Assembly: GCA_041659945.1 (NCBI GenBank)
Contig: JBAZXH010000001.1
Coordinates: forward strand, 363,395-387,394
DNA length: 24,000 nt
Source of the DNA: Candidatus Pacearchaeota archaeon
Lineage (GTDB): Archaea; Nanobdellota; Nanobdellia; Pacearchaeales; GW2011-AR1
Direction: 5' to 3'
Every line of letters begins with the position of its first letter. The stretch's first letter is position 1. Positions 3,332 to 21,750 of this stretch are shown here, in pieces. Position numbers and translations under genes: made by a program. Below the pieces are notes generated by a model. That model was not told the DNA's origin, did not search any database, and saw only the letters and a program-made list of their open reading frames with translations.

Positions 3332-4078
3332 CTATTTATTACCTGTACTCAAGGCTCTGCTAGTTTGTCCATGAATATATACTGTTCGATATAATGCCTT
3401 GACTCTATCTATATTAACTTTAAATGGTATTCCTACTTTCCATGCATGCTCTTGTGCATGTTCTAAATCTTGTTCAATCTCTGGCCAACGACCGCCTTTT
3501 AATGCTTTAACAAAAGCACTTTGAAAATATTCCTCTATTATTACATAATCTCCATCAGTATTACTTTTCTTATAACTTTCTTTTGCTTTTTCTTCAATTT
3601 CTCTAAAATTAAACCTTCTACTTGAATCATAAAGGTCTCTTTTTATTTGAATTTCTTCAGCATATCTTCTTGCTCTATCTAAGCTATCTTTAATATCTTT
3701 CCAAGAAAATCCTCTATTAATCTCATCAAACATATAGTAGCATAACATCCTCATATTCCCAGGACCTTTTTCTTTTATTGCATCATGCCAAAGACCCTTT
3801 AATCTATCCATAAGATTTTTGGATATTGGTCCATTTAGCCCTTCGGACTTACTTGCTATATCTAATCTATTCTGAAGAAAGTAAGATCCAGGACTACCAA
3901 AAAGAGTAGGTCCTTCCCAAGAATCTCCTCGCCATGCATCATAAAAAGCGCCTTGCAGAAAACCTCTAGCTAAACCTATATGCCCCTCATCTTCAACTAT
4001 CTTACGACCCTCTTCAAGTTGAGCATCTAATGTTTTTTTTGTATTTCTAGATTTTCTAGGCTTTTGTTCGTCTTTCAT
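3332..4078 (-). CDS. hypothetical protein with internal repeats (248 aa)
   Basis: Long ATG ORF. The protein contains repeated modules: FLQGAFYDAWRGDSW vs YFQSAFVKALKGGRW, and RGFSWKDIKDSLDRARRYAEE vs KGGRWPEIEQDLEHAQEHAWK. No family recognised. Confidence 0.6.
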   Translation of the reverse strand: MKDEQKPRKSRNTKKTLDAQLEEGRKIVEDEGHIGLARGFLQGAFYDAWRGDSWEGPTLFGSPGSYFLQNRLDIASKSEGLNGPISKNLMDRLKGLWHDAIKEKGPGNMRMLCYYMFDEINRGFSWKDIKDSLDRARRYAEEIQIKRDLYDSSRRFNFREIEEKAKESYKKSNTDGDYVIIEEYFQSAFVKALKGGRWPEIEQDLEHAQEHAWKVGIPFKVNIDRVKALYRTVYIHGQTSRALSTGNK

Positions 4079-5214: not shown

Positions 5215-5496
5215 ATGTCATATGCATCTGATGTAGACTTAGACCAGCAAAGAGAAGAAGCTGAGGAGTTCTTTAGAGAGTGGCAAGAGGCAAATGCTTC
5301 TAGAGAGTCTTCTAGGCTAACTGTTATTGATGAGTCTGGTTTGGAATGTAATGCAAGCGATTATCCTGAGGGGCATATTGTTGGATGTAGATCAGGAGGA
5401 GTTCAGTTTCATTATCGTGCTTCAGTTCTTGATGGTAGAAAATACTGGGCATTAAGCAGTACTTTAAAACCTGAAGAGCCTAGAGGATTAAATTAG
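5215..5496 (+). CDS. hypothetical protein (93 aa, acidic N-terminus)
   Basis: ATG ORF with GAGGTGA SD about 13 nt upstream. No recognisable domain. It is followed immediately by direct-repeat copy 1. Confidence 0.5.
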   Translation: MSYASDVDLDQQREEAEEFFREWQEANASRESSRLTVIDESGLECNASDYPEGHIVGCRSGGVQFHYRASVLDGRKYWALSSTLKPEEPRGLN

Positions 5497-6293: not shown

Positions 6294-6347
6294 CAAAACC
6301 ATTAAGTTTTATCTCGCATTAGGGTGGGGGGATATTCATTTAATTAT
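6294..6347. repeat. direct repeat copy 2
   Basis: See copy 1. It starts 10 nt after the stop of 5607-6284 and ends at the stop codon of the convergent relE-like gene (6344-6346). Confidence 0.9.
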
Positions 6348-6595
6348 TCATAGACATTCTTTCTATGGCCTAACTTAAGAACTAAAATAATTAATTCTTC
6401 ATGTTTAATCTGATAAATTGCTCTATAATCTCCAAATCTTAAACTCCAAAGTCCCGCAAGATTTGTGGTTAATGGTTTTCCTAGTTCAGGATTTTTTTCT
6501 AATTCATTAAATTTTTTTACTATTCTTTCCTGTTCAACTCTTTCTAATTTTCTAAAAAAATTCTCTGGATTTTTTTCAAGTATTATTTTATGCAT
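6344..6595 (-). CDS. relE: type II toxin, RelE/ParE family
   Basis: The 83-aa protein has the typical RelE/ParE C-terminal pattern LAGLWSLRFGDYRAIYQIKHEELIILVLKLGHRKNVYE. It lies 4 nt downstream of the antitoxin gene. Confidence 0.85.
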   Translation of the reverse strand: MHKIILEKNPENFFRKLERVEQERIVKKFNELEKNPELGKPLTTNLAGLWSLRFGDYRAIYQIKHEELIILVLKLGHRKNVYE

Positions 6596-6599
6596 AGGA

Positions 6600-6869
6600 C
6601 TAAGCTTCTAATTTGAGCTCTTTTTTAAGTTTAGAGAATTCTATGCCTCTACCTTGTTCATATTCTTCTAAAGCTTCAGCAATATCCCTCATAGTTTCAG
6701 GATCAGATAAAATTTCAATAGTTTCTATTAAACTGTCTCTATTAACATTTTGAGGAGAACAAGTGCTTAACATTCTTATTATTAAATCATTATAAGACTC
6801 TCTATAATGAACTTTTAATTTGTCAAGTTTATCTTTTACTTTTTCGTCAATTTGTATTGTTGTAACCAT
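6600..6869 (-). CDS. antitoxin (archaeal RelB-like)
   Basis: The 89-aa protein sits upstream of the toxin in the same operon. Its C-terminal ETIEILSDPETMRDIAEALEEYEQGRG is typical of RelB/Phd-type antitoxins. Its N-terminal TIQIDEKVKDKLDKLK...SYNDLIIRML resembles the other antitoxin at 13310. Confidence 0.75.
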   Translation of the reverse strand: MVTTIQIDEKVKDKLDKLKVHYRESYNDLIIRMLSTCSPQNVNRDSLIETIEILSDPETMRDIAEALEEYEQGRGIEFSKLKKELKLEA

Positions 6870-10422: not shown

Positions 10423-11421
10423 ATGAAAAGGAAGATTATTAAGCAAGGGCATAATACACTAACAATAACCCTGCCTTCTGATTGGGTTAAAAAACTTAAT
10501 TTAAACGCTGGAGATGAGGTTGATCTTTTTGAAAATGCGAATTCTTTGGTTATAAGCGGAAAGCAACATAATGGACATAAATCTACAACAATTGATATTA
10601 CTGGATTAAGAGTACCTATGGTTTGGAGATTTTTTCAAGGGGCTTATAGAGAAGGTTATGATGAAATAAAGTTAATATATGATGCAAATAAGCAGGAGTG
10701 TGAAAATGCTTATGATTATTATGCTAATCAGTTTGCCTATACAAGAATGGGTGAAAGGCCAAGAAAGGTTGCTACTCTTGATATGGTTAGTGGTCTTGTT
10801 AGTAGATTTATTGGAATAGCTATTATTGATCATGGCCCAAATTACTGTATTATAAGAGAAATGGGAGAACTGTCAACAAAAGAATTTGATAACTCTTTGA
10901 GAAGAATCTTTTTGTTAATCTTAGAATTATTTGACGAGATTATTTCTATGATTAAGGATAATAAAATTAGTGATATTGGTGTTTGTAAAAGAATTCATAC
11001 TATGGATGTAAATGTTGATAGGTTTGTTGATTACTGTTGTAGAATAAACAATAAGATTAATGACTCAACATTTCAAAAGAATAAACAGCTTATGTTTTCT
11101 ACACTTTTCTTATTGGAGATTTTAAGTGATGAGTTTAAGTATATTGGTAGACATCTTGCAAACTCAAAGAAAAAGGTTGATGAGATTTTAGAGTTTGCAG
11201 AGTTAGTTAAAGAGCATTTTGAGATGTACTATGAGTTATTTTATAAATTTGATAAAGATAGAGCGATTAAATTTGGAGAACATGATTATGAGATTTATAA
11301 TGATCATTTTGAATTAAAAGAATCAGTTAACAAGGATGTTAATAGTATTCGAAGACATTTAATGCAGGTAAGTAAGTTTACTTTTTGTCTAATGGAATTA
11401 AGAGTTGAAATGGAGTACTAG
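10423..11421 (+). CDS. AbrB/SpoVT-domain regulator with PhoU-like helical C-terminal region
   Basis: The N-terminus KIIKQGHNTLTITLPSDWVKKLNLNAGDEVDLFENANSLVISGK is a SpoVT/AbrB swapped-hairpin motif. The long helical remainder resembles archaeal PhoU-type phosphate-uptake regulators. Confidence 0.65.
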   Translation: MKRKIIKQGHNTLTITLPSDWVKKLNLNAGDEVDLFENANSLVISGKQHNGHKSTTIDITGLRVPMVWRFFQGAYREGYDEIKLIYDANKQECENAYDYYANQFAYTRMGERPRKVATLDMVSGLVSRFIGIAIIDHGPNYCIIREMGELSTKEFDNSLRRIFLLILELFDEIISMIKDNKISDIGVCKRIHTMDVNVDRFVDYCCRINNKINDSTFQKNKQLMFSTLFLLEILSDEFKYIGRHLANSKKKVDEILEFAELVKEHFEMYYELFYKFDKDRAIKFGEHDYEIYNDHFELKESVNKDVNSIRRHLMQVSKFTFCLMELRVEMEY

Positions 11422-11440: not shown

Positions 11441-11456
11441 AAATGCTCCCGCCGGG
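11441..11456. repeat. exact 16-nt copy of tRNA-Glu 3' end plus trailer (AAATGCTCCCGCCGGG)
   Basis: Identical to 11573-11588, which covers the acceptor 3' strand and the first trailer bases of the tRNA-Glu gene. Confidence 0.9.
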
Positions 11457-11528
11457 GGCTAAAAATTGCTTCACAATTTTGGCAACTTTAATTCTAAAAC
11501 TAATGAATCAAAGTATTCTAACCCTCCG
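11453..11528 (-). other. tRNA-Glu-linked structured non-coding element (copy A)
   Basis: On the minus strand, CGGAGGGTTA can pair with TAGCCCCCG (one bulged A). This encloses hairpins CTTTGATTC-N10-GAATTAAAG and AAAATTG-TGAAG-CAATTTT. It contains the conserved 29-nt module at 11458-11486. Folded by hand. Confidence 0.4.
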
Positions 11529-11575
11529 GGTTCGAGAATTCCAAAGGAATTCATATTATCTTTGATATTATAAAA

Positions 11576-11802
11576 TGCTCCCGCCGGGATTCGAACCCGG
11601 GTCTAAGCCGTTCTCCGTATTCTCAAAAACCTAAAAAAGAATTTTTTCAGGTGACAAAATTTCTTTTGCATATGAGAATTTATCTATTTTTTCAAATAAA
11701 TTTCTCAGAGGGCAGTCGATTTGAGAACCGAGTGCCGGACTTTCAACAAGTCTGTGGCTCTGCTCGAGAGGGCCTAATGCTTGACCACTACACTACAGGA
11801 GC
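11576..11802 (-). tRNA. tRNA-Glu (anticodon CUC) with 154-nt intron at 37/38
   Basis: Exons 11802-11765 and 11610-11576 give a 73-nt cloverleaf. Acceptor is GCTCCTG/CGGGAGC, D arm GTGT-AGTGGTCAA-GCAT, anticodon arm AGGCC-CTCTCGC-GGCTT. The variable loop is 4 nt (AGAC) and the T arm is CCGGG-TTCGAAT-CCCGG. CTCT(32-35) pairs with GGAG ahead of a 3-nt AAC bulge (BHB core). Confidence 0.75.
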
Positions 11803-11822
11803 GTACCTATGGTTAGATCTTT

Positions 11823-11831
11823 GTGTATAAA
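11823..11831 (-). promoter_or_regulatory. TATA-like box for tRNA-Glu (minus strand TTTATACAC)
   Basis: It lies 21-29 nt upstream of the tRNA 5' end. The same 9-mer occurs upstream of tRNA-Gln (12429-12437) but closer to that gene. Confidence 0.35.
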
Positions 11832-11850
11832 AAACTTTTCTATAGAAGAT

Positions 11851-12102
11851 TTATTCAGCTAAATAGACAAGGTCATTTGGTCTTACTTTTTCTGCCACTT
11901 TTATTCCCACTTCATCTCCAGCAGTTGCTTCTGGTACTTCTTCACGGTCGATTTGCATGCTTTCCACTTCTTGTGTGAAGTTAGTTGTTGCACCCTTTAT
12001 TGTTATCATATCACCTACTCTGAGGGTATCATTTAATTTTACTGCAGCAACTTCAACTTTGGAGAAATAAGACATGACTTTGCCAACTTCTTTTTCTGCC
12101 AT
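11851..12102 (-). CDS. stand-alone EF-Tu domain 2-like (translation-factor beta-barrel) protein, 83 aa
   Basis: MAEKEVGKVMSYFSKVEVAAVKLNDTLRVGDMITIKG...SMQIDREEVPEATAGDEVGIKVAEKVRPNDLVY fits the GTP_EFTU_D2 pattern (G-D-x-I, S-I/M-Q, A-x-A-G-D). The track ORF extends to 12258 through the structured element, so I start at Met53, preceded by AGGA. Confidence 0.65.
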   Translation of the reverse strand: MAEKEVGKVMSYFSKVEVAAVKLNDTLRVGDMITIKGATTNFTQEVESMQIDREEVPEATAGDEVGIKVAEKVRPNDLVYLAE

Positions 12103-12159
12103 TATAATCCTATGTAACAGATATTTATTAATCTTTTGTATGAAAAGGATAGCCTTGCT

Positions 12160-12246
12160 CGGTGCTAAAAATTCATCCTGAATTTTGGCAACCATTCGTT
12201 CTGACGAACTCAGGTATTTGAACCTTTCAAATCCTGAATAGCCCCG
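12160..12246 (-). other. tRNA-Gln-linked structured non-coding element (copy B), 87-nt cloverleaf-like fold
   Basis: On the minus strand, CGGGGCTA pairs with TAGCACCG (one G-A mismatch). This encloses CAGGATTTGAA-AGG-TTCAAATACCTG, TTCGT-CAGA-ACGAA and AAAATTC-AGGAT-GAATTTT. It contains the conserved module at 12164-12192. Folded by hand. Confidence 0.4.
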
Positions 12247-12251
12247 CCAGG
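12237..12251. repeat. exact 15-nt copy of tRNA-Gln 3' end plus trailer (AATAGCCCCGCCAGG)
   Basis: Identical to 12324-12338 in the tRNA-Gln gene. Confidence 0.9.
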
Positions 12252-12325
12252 TACTCAAGAATAAACTTCTTGGTAAGTTATCTTCTTATGAAGCTAACTA
12301 TTTGAAAAATCCTGGCAAATATAAA

Positions 12326-12416
12326 TAGCCCCGCCAGGATTTGAACCTGGGTCCCAGCCTTTCTCCTAAATTAATTGACCAGAGGGCTAGATCCTTGACC
12401 GCTAGACTACAGGGCT
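12326..12416 (-). tRNA. tRNA-Gln (anticodon CUG) with 18-nt intron at 37/38
   Basis: A1-U72 acceptor AGCCCTG/CGGGGCT, typical of archaeal tRNA-Gln. D arm GTCT-AGCGGTCAA-GGAT, anticodon arm TAGCC-CTCTGGA-GGCTG, T arm CCAGG-TTCAAAT-CCTGG. The intron TCAATTAATTTAGGAGAA is at plus 12361-12378, with a CTCT/GGAG helix and AAA bulge. Confidence 0.8.
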
Positions 12417-20522: not shown

Positions 20523-21323
20523 ATGACAATCCAATTACCAAAGTCCTTTGATGTTGTTGGAAATATTGCAATTCTTAAGTTTGATAAAAATGAGAAAAAG
20601 GCTGAGAAGGTTAAGATTGCCAAGGAATTGATGTTTCAATTGCCTGCCATAAAAACTGTTTTGGAAAAAACTGGTAAGTTTAGTGGAAGGCTTAGAACTA
20701 TGAAAACTAACTTTTTGACTGGTGAGAAAACTAAAATTGCAACTTATCGTGAAAATGGGTGTATGTTTAGATTAAATGTTGACACATGTTATTTTTCTCC
20801 AAGATTAAGCAATGAAAGAAATGAAATTGCTAAGCTAGTTAAGCCTGGAGAAAAAGTTTTAGTTTTGTTTGGGGGAGTTGCTCCTTTTTCAATTGTGATT
20901 GCTAAGATGGCAAAGCCAAAAATTGTTTATTCTGTTGAGATTAATCGTGAAGCTTCAAAGTATGCTAGTGAAAATGTTCGTTTAAATAAATTAAATGAAA
21001 AAGTTATTGTTGTTCAGGGAGATGTGAAGAAAGTTATTCCTAGATTAGTTAAAGAGGGTAAGGGGAGACTTAAGTTTGACAGAATTGTGATGGCTAGACC
21101 GCAATTAAAAGAGACTTTTTTGAAATGGGCATTTATGGTTATTAAGAAGGGCGGAATAATTCATTACTATGGGTTTGCAAAAGATCATGAGGAAGTTATT
21201 AAGTCGATTGAAACTGAGGCTAAAAAAGCAAAAAAGAAAATAAAAATATTTCTGATTAAAAAAGCTGGAGATATTGCACCATTTAAGTATAGATGGCGAG
21301 TAGATCTGCGAGTCATGAATTAA
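20523..21323 (+). CDS. trm5: tRNA (guanine37-N1)-methyltransferase Trm5/Taw2 family
   Basis: N-terminal FDVVGNIAILKF, the SAM-binding stretch VLVLFGGVAPFSI and SVEINREA, with Met-10-like overall length and layout. Confidence 0.75.
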   Translation: MTIQLPKSFDVVGNIAILKFDKNEKKAEKVKIAKELMFQLPAIKTVLEKTGKFSGRLRTMKTNFLTGEKTKIATYRENGCMFRLNVDTCYFSPRLSNERNEIAKLVKPGEKVLVLFGGVAPFSIVIAKMAKPKIVYSVEINREASKYASENVRLNKLNEKVIVVQGDVKKVIPRLVKEGKGRLKFDRIVMARPQLKETFLKWAFMVIKKGGIIHYYGFAKDHEEVIKSIETEAKKAKKKIKIFLIKKAGDIAPFKYRWRVDLRVMN

Positions 21324-21331
21324 AAAATAAA

Positions 21332-21541
21332 ATGATAATTATAACAGATCATGCAAAAAAAAGGATGGTTGAACGGGATATTAGTTTTGAAATTATAAAA
21401 ATTGCTGTGGAAATGCCAGATTATACTGTTGATAAGGATGGGATGATTGAGGCTTTCAAAAAGTTAGACAATAAAACTTTGAAGGTAGTTTACGTCAGTA
21501 AAGATAAATTTATAAAGATACTAAGTGTCATGTGGAAATGA
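21332..21541 (+). CDS. DUF4258-family protein (putative toxin)
   Basis: MIIITDHAKKRMVERDISFEIIKIAV matches the DUF4258 H-A-x-x-R-M-x-E-R-x-I signature. The track ORF start (21293) lies inside trm5, so the ATG at 21332 is preferred. Confidence 0.7.
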   Translation: MIIITDHAKKRMVERDISFEIIKIAVEMPDYTVDKDGMIEAFKKLDNKTLKVVYVSKDKFIKILSVMWK

Positions 21542-21750
21542 TAATTGAAGTAGATAAAAATGCTGATGCGGCATATATATATTTTAGAGAAATTAAAGCA
21601 GGAGAGGTAGTTCAGACTATATCTCTTAATGAGGAAATTAACATTGATTTGGACAAAGATGGAATTACTATTGGAATTGAGGTGTTAAATGCAAGTAAAA
21701 ACCTTCCTTCTTCATCGTTTAAAGATGCTAAATTGATCAATTTGAATTAG
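21532..21750 (+). CDS. DUF2283-family protein (putative antitoxin partner)
   Basis: EVDKNADAAYIYFRE...INIDLDKDGITIGIEVLNAS matches the DUF2283 pattern (D-x-L-Y-I, D-x-D-G-x-x-x-G-I-E-I). It overlaps the upstream gene end; an alternative ATGA-coupled start is at 21538. Confidence 0.7.
   Translation: MEMIIEVDKNADAAYIYFREIKAGEVVQTISLNEEINIDLDKDGITIGIEVLNASKNLPSSSFKDAKLINLN

Follow-up and report, generated by a model that had tools for sequence, protein, structure and literature searches.

A two-hairpin element joined to tRNA T-arm sequence in Pacearchaeota and Woesearchaeota: a candidate non-autonomous mobile element

Introduction

DPANN archaea have tiny genomes in which tRNA genes are mostly single-copy. 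In one 24,000-nt stretch of a Candidatus Pacearchaeota genome (GCA_041659945.1, contig JBAZXH010000001.1, positions 363,395 to 387,394; hereafter the window), two intron-containing tRNA genes on the minus strand are each followed by non-coding DNA that repeats the 3′ end of the gene and carries a hairpin of shared sequence. This raises the question of what the hairpin sequence is and how it came to lie between two copies of a tRNA end. A first, sequence-only reading of the window offered three explanations: att-site scars of small tRNA-targeting integrative elements, a tRNA-derived ncRNA family, or a shared signal for pre-tRNA processing or termination.

tRNA genes and downstream units in the window

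The functional target genes of the units in the window are those for tRNA-Gln(CUG) and tRNA-Glu(CUC). The latter is overlooked by default ARAGORN and Rfam scans and was recovered with the intron setting of ARAGORN; it has orthologues in L006, L016, L026, L029, L030, and L034. The window tRNA-Gln is 82-85% identical to tRNA-Gln(CUG) of L006, L016, and L030, and only 71% identical to that of the closest relative, L026. By these identities, its body is of a type foreign to the host lineage.

Both repeats described in the sequence-only reading are exact. On the minus strand, AAATGCTCCCGCCGGG at 11441-11456, behind tRNA-Glu, recurs at 11573-11588, at the 3′ end of that gene, and AATAGCCCCGCCAGG at 12237-12251 recurs at 12324-12338 for tRNA-Gln. 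The 29-nt module GTTGCCAAAATT-N7-AATTTTTAGC, read on the minus strand, is found at 11458-11486 (module A) and 12164-12192 (module B), and allowing up to 3 mismatches returns the same two sites only (expected 0.00 from 100 shuffles). The G-C to C-G swap in the stem that separates the two modules is likewise real. The statement that no ORF is involved is true in substance, as the sole overlapping ORF (11851-12258, TTG start) is a mechanical 5′ extension of an 83-aa gene that starts at ATG 12102. The earlier reading overlooked that tRNA-Gln is followed by two tandem units, the proximal one diverged and the next one canonical. No copy of the element lies behind the tRNA-Thr gene of the window. The parts of the two loci are as follows, each listed in transcription order.

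12326-12416, minus strand: tRNA-Gln(CUG) with an 18-nt intron (Rfam tRNA, 44.7 bits; ARAGORN)
12300-12316, minus strand: T-arm-derived piece of Gln unit 1, GCCAGG-ATTT-TTCAAAT (read from the sequence)
12252-12299, minus strand: diverged core of Gln unit 1, AG-hp1-CU / UACC-AAGAAG..CUUCUUG-AGUA (folding and architecture)
12239-12251, minus strand: tail of Gln unit 1, an exact copy of tRNA-Gln nt 61-73, CCTGGCGGGGCTA (repeat comparison)
12211-12236, minus strand: palindrome (hp0) of Gln unit 2, CAGGATTTGAA-AGG-TTCAAATACCTG
12163-12215, minus strand: canonical core E of Gln unit 2, AC-hp1-GU / UGC-C-AAAAUUC-AGGAU-GAAUUUU-UA-GCA
12150-12162, minus strand: tail of Gln unit 2, the displaced 3′ end of an earlier tRNA-Gln, CCGAGCAAGGCTA (comparison with L026)
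11576-11802, minus strand: tRNA-Glu(CUC) with a 154-nt intron (ARAGORN with introns)
11515-11552, minus strand: spacer hairpin of the Glu unit, GAATTCC-TTT-GGAATTC, overlapping hp0, TTCTCGAACC-CGGAG-GGTTAGAAT
11457-11514, minus strand: canonical core E of the Glu unit, AC-hp1-GU / UGC-C-AAAAUUG-UGAAG-CAAUUUU-UA-GCC
11441-11456, minus strand: tail of the Glu unit, an exact copy of tRNA-Glu nt 61-73 plus TTT (repeat comparison)

Modules A and B thus lie inside the cores of the Glu unit and of Gln unit 2, respectively. In the Glu unit, hp0 repeats with its 3′ arm the 5′ strand of the T-stem and the T-loop, and the flanks of the core, GGTTAGAAT joined to CCCGGCGGGAGC, match the contiguous tRNA at all but 1 of 21 positions. 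In Gln unit 2, hp0 repeats the T-loop with its 3′ arm, and the palindrome overlaps the first 5 nt of the core. The T-arm-derived piece of Gln unit 1 starts with the T-stem strand, continues with a short inverted segment, and ends in a T-loop copy that adjoins the core, a layout also present in L009 (AGGGGATTTTTCAAATAC). The minimum free energy fold of the core in this unit has two adjacent hairpins (-12.8 kcal/mol), with an architecture like that of the canonical core and of the GTCCC subfamily.

Distribution and architecture of the family

The exact 29-nt module occurs in 24 further DNA stretches, about 18 of them distinct, from Pacearchaeota and Woesearchaeota MAGs and unbinned metagenome contigs; JGI metagenomes supplied 16 of them and GTDB genomes 8, the latter all DPANN MAGs by record title or content. 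Neither the exact module nor the GTCCC variant has a match in IMG/VR. A relaxed pattern gave 12 matches there, and since all of these fall within coding sequence and lack a hairpin or tRNA, they are chance matches; a viral origin was rejected.

Nearly all of the stretches lie directly 3′ of a tRNA gene, and the isoacceptors vary: the same layout is seen downstream of Lys, Trp, Tyr, Gly, Leu, Ser, Met, Thr, Glu, and Gln tRNAs. Each unit, 70-250 bp in size, is ordered as a spacer, a short palindrome built from the T-loop sequence of the tRNA concerned (hp0), a core E of 50-60 nt, and a copy of tRNA nt 61/62-73. The core has the form AC-hp1-GU / UGC-C-hp2-UA-GCA, and the 29-nt module is its second hairpin, hp2. 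The inverted T-loop copy in hp0 stands beside every unit. Units without a hairpin core occur behind tRNA-Glu in L029 and tRNA-Arg in L007. Up to 4 units form a tandem array, and within the DNA covered a complete tRNA lies upstream of nearly every unit (exceptions: L008, L022, L024). A copy of the last 12 nt of the tRNA (at most 1 mismatch) lies within 600 nt downstream of 21 of the 35 tRNAs in the fetched loci, most of which were chosen because they carry the element.

The first reading had not recognized the arrangement as a described element, and neither Rfam nor a full-text literature search yielded a description; the two-hairpin element is thus apparently undescribed. In Rfam, only tRNA scored above the gathering threshold, no family corresponds to the element, and at E ≤ 5 no match overlaps either two-hairpin core or either palindrome in the window. 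A weak match to CRISPR-DR63 at 11529-11566 (19.6 bits against a gathering threshold of 37, E = 4.1) overlaps the spacer hairpin of the Glu unit.

Structure of the core

The stem swap between modules A and B had been taken to argue for selection on structure rather than sequence, and the wider family supports this. Because the search pattern itself set the 22 invariant bases of the module, the conservation of these bases does not count as independent evidence. Across 18 distinct family members the two top pairs of hp2 covary, and every Watson-Crick type is represented: one pair is CG in 8, UA in 7, AU in 1, and GC in 1, and the other is UA in 6, AU in 5, and CG in 5. The first hairpin, hp1, is kept as a hairpin with about 25 different sequences, variable length, and an optional bulged T. 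When each of 26 hp1 hairpins was folded against shuffled sequences, the mean z was -4.2, at a median interior identity of 64%.

The two hairpins are dissimilar, and hp2 contains a conserved 1x2 internal loop. A C/A mismatch in hp2 on the tRNA-sense strand corresponds to a G.U pair on the opposite strand, and the G.U pairs of hp1 are mostly on the sense strand. The folding signals of the two strands are therefore mixed, and do not indicate one active strand. A MITE was rejected on two points: AC... and ...GCA, at the two ends of the core, do not form inverted repeats, and the core is not bounded by a target-site duplication of its own.

Insertion junctions, gain, and loss

Insertion of the core is precise: when the 8-9 nt before E are joined to the 12 nt after it, 12 of 19 units give contiguous tRNA sequence with at most 2 mismatches and no gap, and 3 further units fit by eye after a 1-nt shift of the boundary. 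Deleting E restores a contiguous tRNA sequence from the T-loop to the 3′ end. The junction falls at the 3′ edge of the T-loop, between nt 60 and 61 or 61 and 62 (55-58 in some variants), and the left flank ends in a loose A-W-T(C) motif such as AAT, ATT, AATC, or ATTC. The tail repeat starts at a fixed point (nt 56-62) and is mostly 13-20 nt long, reaching 43 nt in one lineage.

The same core is found beside different tRNAs and in both orientations. In L007, a core identical at 49 of 49 nt lies downstream of tRNA-Met and, twice, of tRNA-Gly, where the flanks are tRNA-specific; the core alone is common to these units, and the spacer, palindrome, and tail are local. Inverted copies occur downstream of tRNA-Gln in L006 and L016, nested copies are seen, and one copy has an insertion of ~75 nt within its hp1 loop.

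Presence of the element varies at orthologous sites. The tRNA-Gln site is filled in the window and in L029, and empty in L026, L027, and L030. One population has 1 or 2 units depending on the strain, and the breakpoint of one strain rearrangement is at the 5′ AC of E. Among P0009, P0102, P0024, and P0035, this copy-number variation and the one rearrangement were seen; no clean empty/filled pair was found among near-identical strains, and no excised form was found.

Of the two end copies, the one at the tRNA is part of the working gene; the distal one is a displaced fragment, which at the Gln locus preserves an older allele. The acceptor-like end behind module B, first described as degenerate, is indeed present (12150-12162). 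It matches the 3′ end of L026 tRNA-Gln at 12 of 13 positions and that of the present window gene at 9 of 13, and is therefore the displaced original end. The flanks on both sides of this tail also align with L026. In the tRNA-Glu unit of L016, the two flanks represent an older type than the gene now in place.

A proposed mobile element aimed at the T-arm

The reading that we favor, at a probability of roughly one half, is that E is a mobile DNA element, non-autonomous and restricted to Pacearchaeota and Woesearchaeota, which targets the DNA of the tRNA T-arm and depends on an enzyme supplied in trans. Its target would be a conserved near-palindrome, to which E would be joined at the 3′ edge of the T-loop, probably by transposition at the DNA level. 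Insertions into a working gene would presumably be lethal; the arrangements observed are only those in which the tRNA still works, with an intact gene upstream and E in a partial 3′ copy downstream. Since E sits within such a partial copy, the 3′ end that follows the module is its right-hand target flank; this would be a displaced or duplicated end comparable to the displaced tRNA fragment of tRNA-targeting islands. Arrays would form as units stack by repeated insertion, and the tail most distant from the gene would be both the oldest and the most decayed.

Because E encodes nothing, the enzyme must act in trans. No ORF lies within the units, and in a Pfam search the neighboring genes in the loci included no recombinase and only housekeeping genes. 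The preferred candidate would be a hairpin-recognizing, single-strand Y1/HUH transposase of the IS200/IS605 or RAYT type, with an integrase or casposase-like enzyme as the alternative. In 256 Nanobdellota proteomes, K07491, the REP-associated Y1 tyrosine transposase, is alone among transposase KOs in having strict hits (bioRxiv 10.64898/2026.05.13.725050). A tblastn search of the fetched loci with IS608 TnpA returned nothing, which is a weak test.

Several traits of E resemble those of the PATEs of IS200/IS605 and of REP/REPIN sequences. These too are tiny and non-coding, have imperfect hairpins with a conserved stem irregularity and no terminal inverted repeats, insert precisely without a target duplication of their own, are mobilized in trans (as E would be), and occur in both orientations, in clusters, and nested; among transposase KOs, moreover, strict hits in the phylum are reported only for a RAYT-type gene. 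However, the hairpins at the ends of IS200/IS605 elements are alike, whereas those of E are unlike each other and hp1 is free in sequence. IS200/IS605 elements require a strict target of 4-5 nt, whereas E adjoins a structured T-arm with a loose end motif. Both known kinds are scattered in intergenic DNA, whereas copies of E are confined to tRNA 3′ flanks. In addition, at each insertion of E part of the target is duplicated and a flank is copied in inverted form, and no transposase is linked to E in the DNA covered, which includes 24 kb of the 832-kb source contig.

The tRNA-specific inverted T-loop copy (hp0) and the duplicated 3′ end are not explained by simple cut-and-paste. Snap-back cDNA, hairpin-capped breaks, palindromic target duplication, and inversion between repeats were considered as origins of hp0, and none yields all three arrangements. 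A more speculative reading, which we hold to be rather unlikely, is an undescribed mobility system in which the hairpin element would recognize folded or near-palindromic T-arm DNA and have its end joined to nt 61, after which the gene would be rebuilt by local synthesis, with the inverted T-loop copy as a footprint. Such a system would drive the exchange of entire tRNA genes for foreign alleles, as seen for the window tRNA-Gln, and LAGLIDADG endonucleases may act together with the element. Its chemistry, if this were true, would be unlike integrase, casposase, DDE, and IS200/IS605 schemes as now described.

Alternative explanations

Among the explanations first proposed, att-site scars come closest: the duplicated ends are derived from the target, but the units are not passive scars, as the core itself recurs at different tRNAs. 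No integrase is present. An elaborated form, in which each unit would depend, as an attP-only satellite, on an element with a tyrosine or serine integrase and recombine within nt 61-73, with the hairpins as arm or accessory-protein sites and the tail as attR, is doubtful. It draws on the hallmark of tRNA-targeting islands, a regenerated gene together with a displaced fragment (Islander; PMC4383910). Islands of tyrosine integrases split the tRNA gene at a set position, which for the units would be the edge of the T-loop, and rebuild it, the original 3′ fragment becoming the direct repeat at the far end. Such islands and tycheposon arrays also grow in tandem through successive events, and the displaced fragment may keep an older allele; the units, too, form polar arrays with decayed distal copies, retain an older allele in a distal tail, and in the two cases named above lack the hairpin core. 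However, units of 70-250 bp, with neither cargo nor an integrase in or near any of them, are too short for a normal double-stranded circle. In islands the att core at each end is an unbroken tRNA segment, whereas in most units E interrupts the displaced fragment between the T-loop and the 3′ strand of the T-stem, so that T-loop copy and tail are one tRNA piece split by the core, which is unexpected of an att site. Nor does it fit that the core takes either orientation relative to the tail, that an inverted T-loop copy accompanies every unit, or that the tRNA-Met and tRNA-Gly units of L007 have only the core in common. Integration by a Cas1- or casposase-like enzyme would read the T-loop as a "leader" and duplicate the next ~15 bp (nt 61-73 and a few more), with new units entering on the gene side as CRISPR spacers do. 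Casposons have a 14-15-bp target-site duplication next to the T-psi-C loop region (PMC5137440), and the fixed repeat start beside the T-loop, the usual repeat length of 13-20 nt, and the polarity of the arrays agree with this. Nevertheless, such an origin is very unlikely, as the repeat varies from 13 to 43 nt, terminal inverted repeats are absent, and the fetched loci contain no cas1 or polB. The insert is moreover a conserved hairpin element with tRNA-derived sequence, including a tRNA-specific T-loop copy and its inverse, and its left end is not conserved. Ends of the casposon or MITE type were rejected, the left ends of units being neither conserved nor the inverse of ...TAGCA.

Explanations at the RNA level account for other parts of the evidence. 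A tRNA-derived ncRNA family is not supported in the form initially suggested: only the flanks come from the tRNA, and the core does not. A functional small RNA is distinctly unlikely, whether as a tRNA maturation regulator or with the hairpins as scaffold and the 13-16-nt tail as a guide, as in TnpB/IscB omega-RNA or type V crRNA with the T-loop as a 5′ TAM or PAM. The hairpin structure is conserved with covariation, a conserved scaffold directly precedes a variable segment equal to the DNA that flanks the element end and follows an AT-rich T-loop motif, and spacers that are AT-rich and TATA-like are frequent at ~25 nt upstream of the core, as read by eye from the sequences. However, no TnpB/Cas12-like or other nuclease gene is nearby, the scaffold is only ~55 nt, and in inverted copies the tail is on the wrong side. 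The module is kept where a decayed tail no longer matches the tRNA (L016, L003, and unit 2 of the window), an active guide would hit the intact gene ~100 nt upstream, and presence is variable at orthologous sites. Inverted copies also argue against any function tied to co-transcription with the tRNA. A terminator or pre-tRNA processing signal common to tRNA genes and kept by selection, the last of the initial suggestions, is scarcely credible: the 3′ arm of hp2 does run into T5 behind tRNA genes, and at the Glu locus hp2 also lies 37 nt behind a convergent ORF, but the same tRNA-Gln in close relatives and the window tRNA-Thr lack the element, copy number is strain-variable, inverted and nested copies occur, and the duplicated 3′ ends are left unexplained. 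Archaeal non-canonical introns and split or permuted tRNAs share with E a discrete insertion at a T-loop position, and the tRNAs of the hosts are intron-rich. The interrupted copy, in contrast, is a 3′ fragment (nt ~47-73) behind a complete gene, often with a decayed 5′ strand of the T-stem. A T-loop intron or split tRNA was rejected on this ground and on the bulge-helix-bulge (BHB) motif of two 3-nt bulges 4 bp apart, which could not be drawn by hand at the junctions: the 4 nt before the 3′ bulge (UUUA or UUAG) are unable to pair with T-loop nt 54-57.

Implications for tRNA genes in small genomes

If E is a mobile element, its units are a record of earlier tRNA alleles and of at least one case in which a foreign type took the place of a whole tRNA gene, and active non-coding parasites would be present even in the tiny genomes of DPANN archaea. 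No described transposition scheme cleanly fits a hairpin element that is aimed at the T-arm, joins precisely at nt 60-62 in either orientation, and comes with an inverted copy of a flank, and E thus offers a concrete system for seeking a new or re-purposed recombinase. In practice, the units yield spurious tRNA fragments and repeats, which can break assemblies and confuse the annotation of tRNAs in MAGs. The tRNA genes of relatives have a further feature, in that genes for LAGLIDADG endonucleases are found at their 5′ side or in their introns.

The tRNA-Glu and tRNA-Gln Loci

The window has a G+C content of about 30% and carries archaeal-type genes, such as two PheRS subunits and an XPD-like helicase. 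Its two tRNA loci follow one another on the minus strand, and each gene is trailed by one or more units composed of an AT-rich spacer, a short palindrome (hp0), a two-hairpin core (E, with hairpins hp1 and hp2) and a tail that copies the tRNA 3′ end:

12326-12416, minus strand: tRNA-Gln(CUG) with an 18-nt intron, first in minus-strand order, followed by two units
12252-12299, minus strand: core of the proximal Gln unit, with a diverged module and a perfect tail
12150-12162, minus strand: "degenerate" tail of the distal Gln unit, which has the canonical module
11851-12102, minus strand: 83-aa EF-Tu-domain-2-like gene, between the Gln units and tRNA-Glu
11576-11802, minus strand: tRNA-Glu(CUC) with a 154-nt intron, followed by one unit

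A sequence-only reading had described the duplicated 3′ ends, a shared 29-nt hairpin module (hp2; 22 fixed and seven variable nt) and a second acceptor-like end, and its sequence statements were all correct on re-examination. Both duplications are exact, the module gives two matches in the window even with three mismatches allowed (0.00 expected), and the second acceptor-like end is present at 12150-12162. What it overlooked is that two tandem units stand behind tRNA-Gln.

The tRNA-Glu(CUC) gene, with its 154-nt intron, is missed by default ARAGORN and Rfam scans. Within this intron are two tRNA-like pieces, one resembling a T-loop (GGTTCTCAAATC) and the other an anticodon loop (GCCCTCTGAG); in orthologues the intron is 84-121 nt long. 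A motif, TCGATGAGA or TCGACGAGA, that might be a C/D-box guide is common to several tRNA-Glu introns among the loci fetched from relatives and metagenomes, which bear L-numbers (L006, L016, L029, L034, L063, L071). A 332-aa ORF with an AbrB/MazE N-terminal domain (10423-11421, plus strand; homologue in L027) is convergent on the Glu unit, and small toxin-antitoxin-like pairs (VapB/ParE, DUF4258/DUF2283) lie at 6344-6869 (minus) and 21293-21750 (plus).

Anatomy of a Unit

In the tRNA sense, the order is spacer, hp0, E and tail. The 3′ arm of hp0 copies the T-stem 5′ strand and T-loop of the tRNA, including rare T-loop variants such as TTCGATT or TTCAATT, and the tail runs from nt 61 or 62 to a point 0-7 nt beyond the discriminator. 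E starts with AC and finishes with GCA; hp1 is closed by AC/GU, and hp2, whose 1x2 internal loop is conserved, by the next bases, UGC...GCA. When E is deleted in silico, the flanks form contiguous tRNA without a gap (at most two mismatches in 20-21 nt) in 12 of 19 units, and three units of the GTCCC subfamily also fit by eye with the boundary shifted by 1 nt. Because the flanks rejoin in this way, E is a discrete and precise insertion between nt 60 and 61 or 61 and 62 of a partial tRNA copy.

With b as T-loop copy and c as tail, three arrangements occur: inverse(b)-NN-b/E/c, inverse(b)/E/b2-c and inverse(b)/inverse(E)/b2-c. All three have, on the side facing the gene, a T-loop copy that is inverted and specific to the tRNA, and no single known mechanism was found to yield all of them.

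The compensatory stem swap reported between the two window modules is borne out across the family: the two top pairs of hp2, its sole positions left free by the search pattern, use all Watson-Crick types. A 7-11-bp hp1 is nearly always present with a sequence that differs in almost every copy (mean z = -4.2 over 26 copies; median interior identity 64%). At least one further subfamily follows the same plan (GUCCC-AGAAAWU...-GAGC), and looser variants include the proximal Gln unit of the window, Gln unit 2 of L006 and a tRNA-Val unit in L019. Shuffled sequence gives 8-17 matches to a simple two-hairpin descriptor and the loci themselves 54, of which the recognisable ones all adjoin tRNAs.

Distribution of the Element

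The 22 fixed module bases were used as an exact pattern in one scan each of the GTDB species representatives, JGI metagenomes and IMG/VR. GTDB gave eight stretches, seven titled Woesearchaeota or Pacearchaeota MAGs; two of the stretches came from one contig of a record titled Paceibacterota, which carries the same archaeal locus. JGI gave 16 more, whereas IMG/VR gave no exact-module match. After de-duplication, about 18 distinct copies beyond the window remained. The Paceibacterota contig (DAOTCN010000001.1, 389 kb, "Candidatus Paceibacterota bacterium"; L003, L005) bears canonical units behind tRNA-Lys and tRNA-Trp in a sequence context identical to a JGI contig (L014, L017); it is probably a mislabelled Pacearchaeota genome.

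Nearly all copies have the module behind a tRNA gene (Lys, Trp, Tyr, Gly, Leu, Ser, Met, Thr, Glu or Gln), at a distance of 70-250 nt, and the 3′ end of the same tRNA comes next. In the fetched loci as a whole, most of them module-selected, the last 12 nt of 21 of the 35 tRNAs recur, with one mismatch at most, no more than 600 nt downstream; several of these tRNAs were chosen independently of the module, and their units carry variant modules. Tandem arrays reach four units behind tRNA-Gly in L007 and three behind tRNA-Gln in L016.

Rfam holds no family for the element, and no description of it was found in the searchable literature. Mobile elements that use tRNA genes and displace a 3′ fragment, and non-autonomous elements built of hairpins, are known in general; the combination, target and architecture appear to be new.

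Evidence for Mobility of the Core as DNA and for Allele Replacement

In L007, an identical 49-nt core stands behind tRNA-Met and, twice, tRNA-Gly; only the core is common, the palindrome and tail being tRNA-specific. A third Met copy there has an insertion of about 75 nt within the hp1 loop. L006 and L016 carry inverted cores behind tRNA-Gln (tRNA, TT, inverse T-loop, inverse core, AATC, tail), and in L023 a long unit contains a variant that is also inverted. One population, marked by protein P0009 (L032-L040), has one or two 134-nt tandem units behind tRNA-Glu, depending on the strain. On one of its contigs the core replaces nt 38-55 of tRNA-Glu and the intron end, with the 3′ exon lost; the breakpoint is the 5′ AC of the core, and no intact tRNA-Glu(CUC) is left on that contig.

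Comparison of orthologous tRNA-Gln sites, proposed with the sequence-only reading, shows them empty in L026, L027 and L030 and filled in the window and L029. Behind tRNA-Glu of L029 (10585-10880), a 43-nt duplicate (nt 58-73 plus 27-nt trailer) lacks the hairpin core; it represents an excised or empty unit, or else the product of a different process.

The sequence flanking tRNA-Gln on either side aligns well between the window and L026, the closest relative; a neighbouring protein is 83% identical, and the two tRNA-Glu 5′ exons hardly differ. The distal Gln tail of the window (CCGAGCAAGGCTA) matches the L026 tRNA-Gln 3′ end at 12 of 13 positions and the present window gene at 9 of 13, while the present gene shares 82-85% identity with tRNA-Gln of L006, L016 and L030 but only 71% with that of L026. 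It follows that a foreign type has taken the place of the resident tRNA-Gln body, and that the last 13 nt of the replaced gene survive behind the core. At tRNA-Glu of L016, too, both core flanks represent an older type than the gene now there. The tail is thus the displaced end of the target, in keeping with tRNA-targeting islands, which leave a regenerated gene and a displaced fragment (PMC4383910). The L026 tRNA-Gln (455-529, compared with window 12326-12416) has no intron; its two acceptor-stem mismatches (AGCCTCT vs. CTAGGCT) suggest that it is itself chimeric.

Origin of the Units

What the loci show is a small hairpin element with an exact junction at the edge of the T-loop, found in both orientations and with an intact gene upstream in nearly all cases. 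The best explanation, with a probability of about one half, is a trans-mobilised hairpin element: E would insert at the DNA level, catalysed in trans, and insertions into a working tRNA gene would be removed by selection. No recombinase is encoded in any unit or among the neighbouring genes of the window and fetched loci. IS200/IS605-type or REP-type elements fit the core best, if incompletely. Like them, it has imperfect hairpins without inverted terminal repeats, makes no duplication of its own, and occurs in both orientations and nested. However, its target motif is loose, its two hairpins are unlike each other, and their scheme yields neither the duplicated 3′ end nor the inverted T-loop copy. 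According to a preprint, the REP-associated Y1 transposase is the sole transposase KO for which 256 Nanobdellota proteomes give strict hits (bioRxiv 10.64898/2026.05.13.725050).

Miniature integrative elements, or micro-islands, are a less likely source. A casposase-like route offers a different parallel, with the T-loop region as the leader and a duplication of 15 bp after it (PMC5137440), but the units have no inverted repeats and the fetched loci no Cas1, and it is distinctly improbable. The hairpins of E could form in RNA or single-stranded DNA, and G·U evidence from hp1 and hp2 points to different strands. A functional guide-like RNA is unlikely, slightly less so than the casposase-like route, and a terminator very unlikely indeed.

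Other Rearrangements at tRNA Genes

Relatives carry a family of LAGLIDADG-domain ORFs at their tRNA genes, of which the window has none; Pfam LAGLIDADG_3 matches the L028 ORF with 27.4 bits, and this ORF and that of L063 share 47% identity:

L027 8089-9075 and L028 5287-6273: LAGLIDADG ORF ending at or overlapping the tRNA-Gln 5′ end
L063 1509-2465: LAGLIDADG ORF overlapping the tRNA-Glu 5′ end
L029 about 10455-10604: decayed LAGLIDADG remnant at the tRNA-Glu 5′ end, placed as in L063
L025 1509-2129: LAGLIDADG ORF within a tRNA intron (predicted, 706 nt)

Besides E there is another small repeat, GGGAAAGTTAAGCGAAGAAAACCGTAGGTTGTCTCGC, which, together with a variant, occurs at three places in L016 and L007: abutting a tRNA 5′ end (just 5′ of tRNA-Glu, L016), abutting a 3′-end tail copy (tRNA-Gln unit 3, L016) and nested within the hp1 loop of one core (L007, about 5330-5400). 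In L020 (about 3560-3700), the tRNA-Leu promoter region and first 15 nt are duplicated some 60 nt upstream of the complete gene, so rearrangement in this group extends to the 5′ side of tRNA genes.
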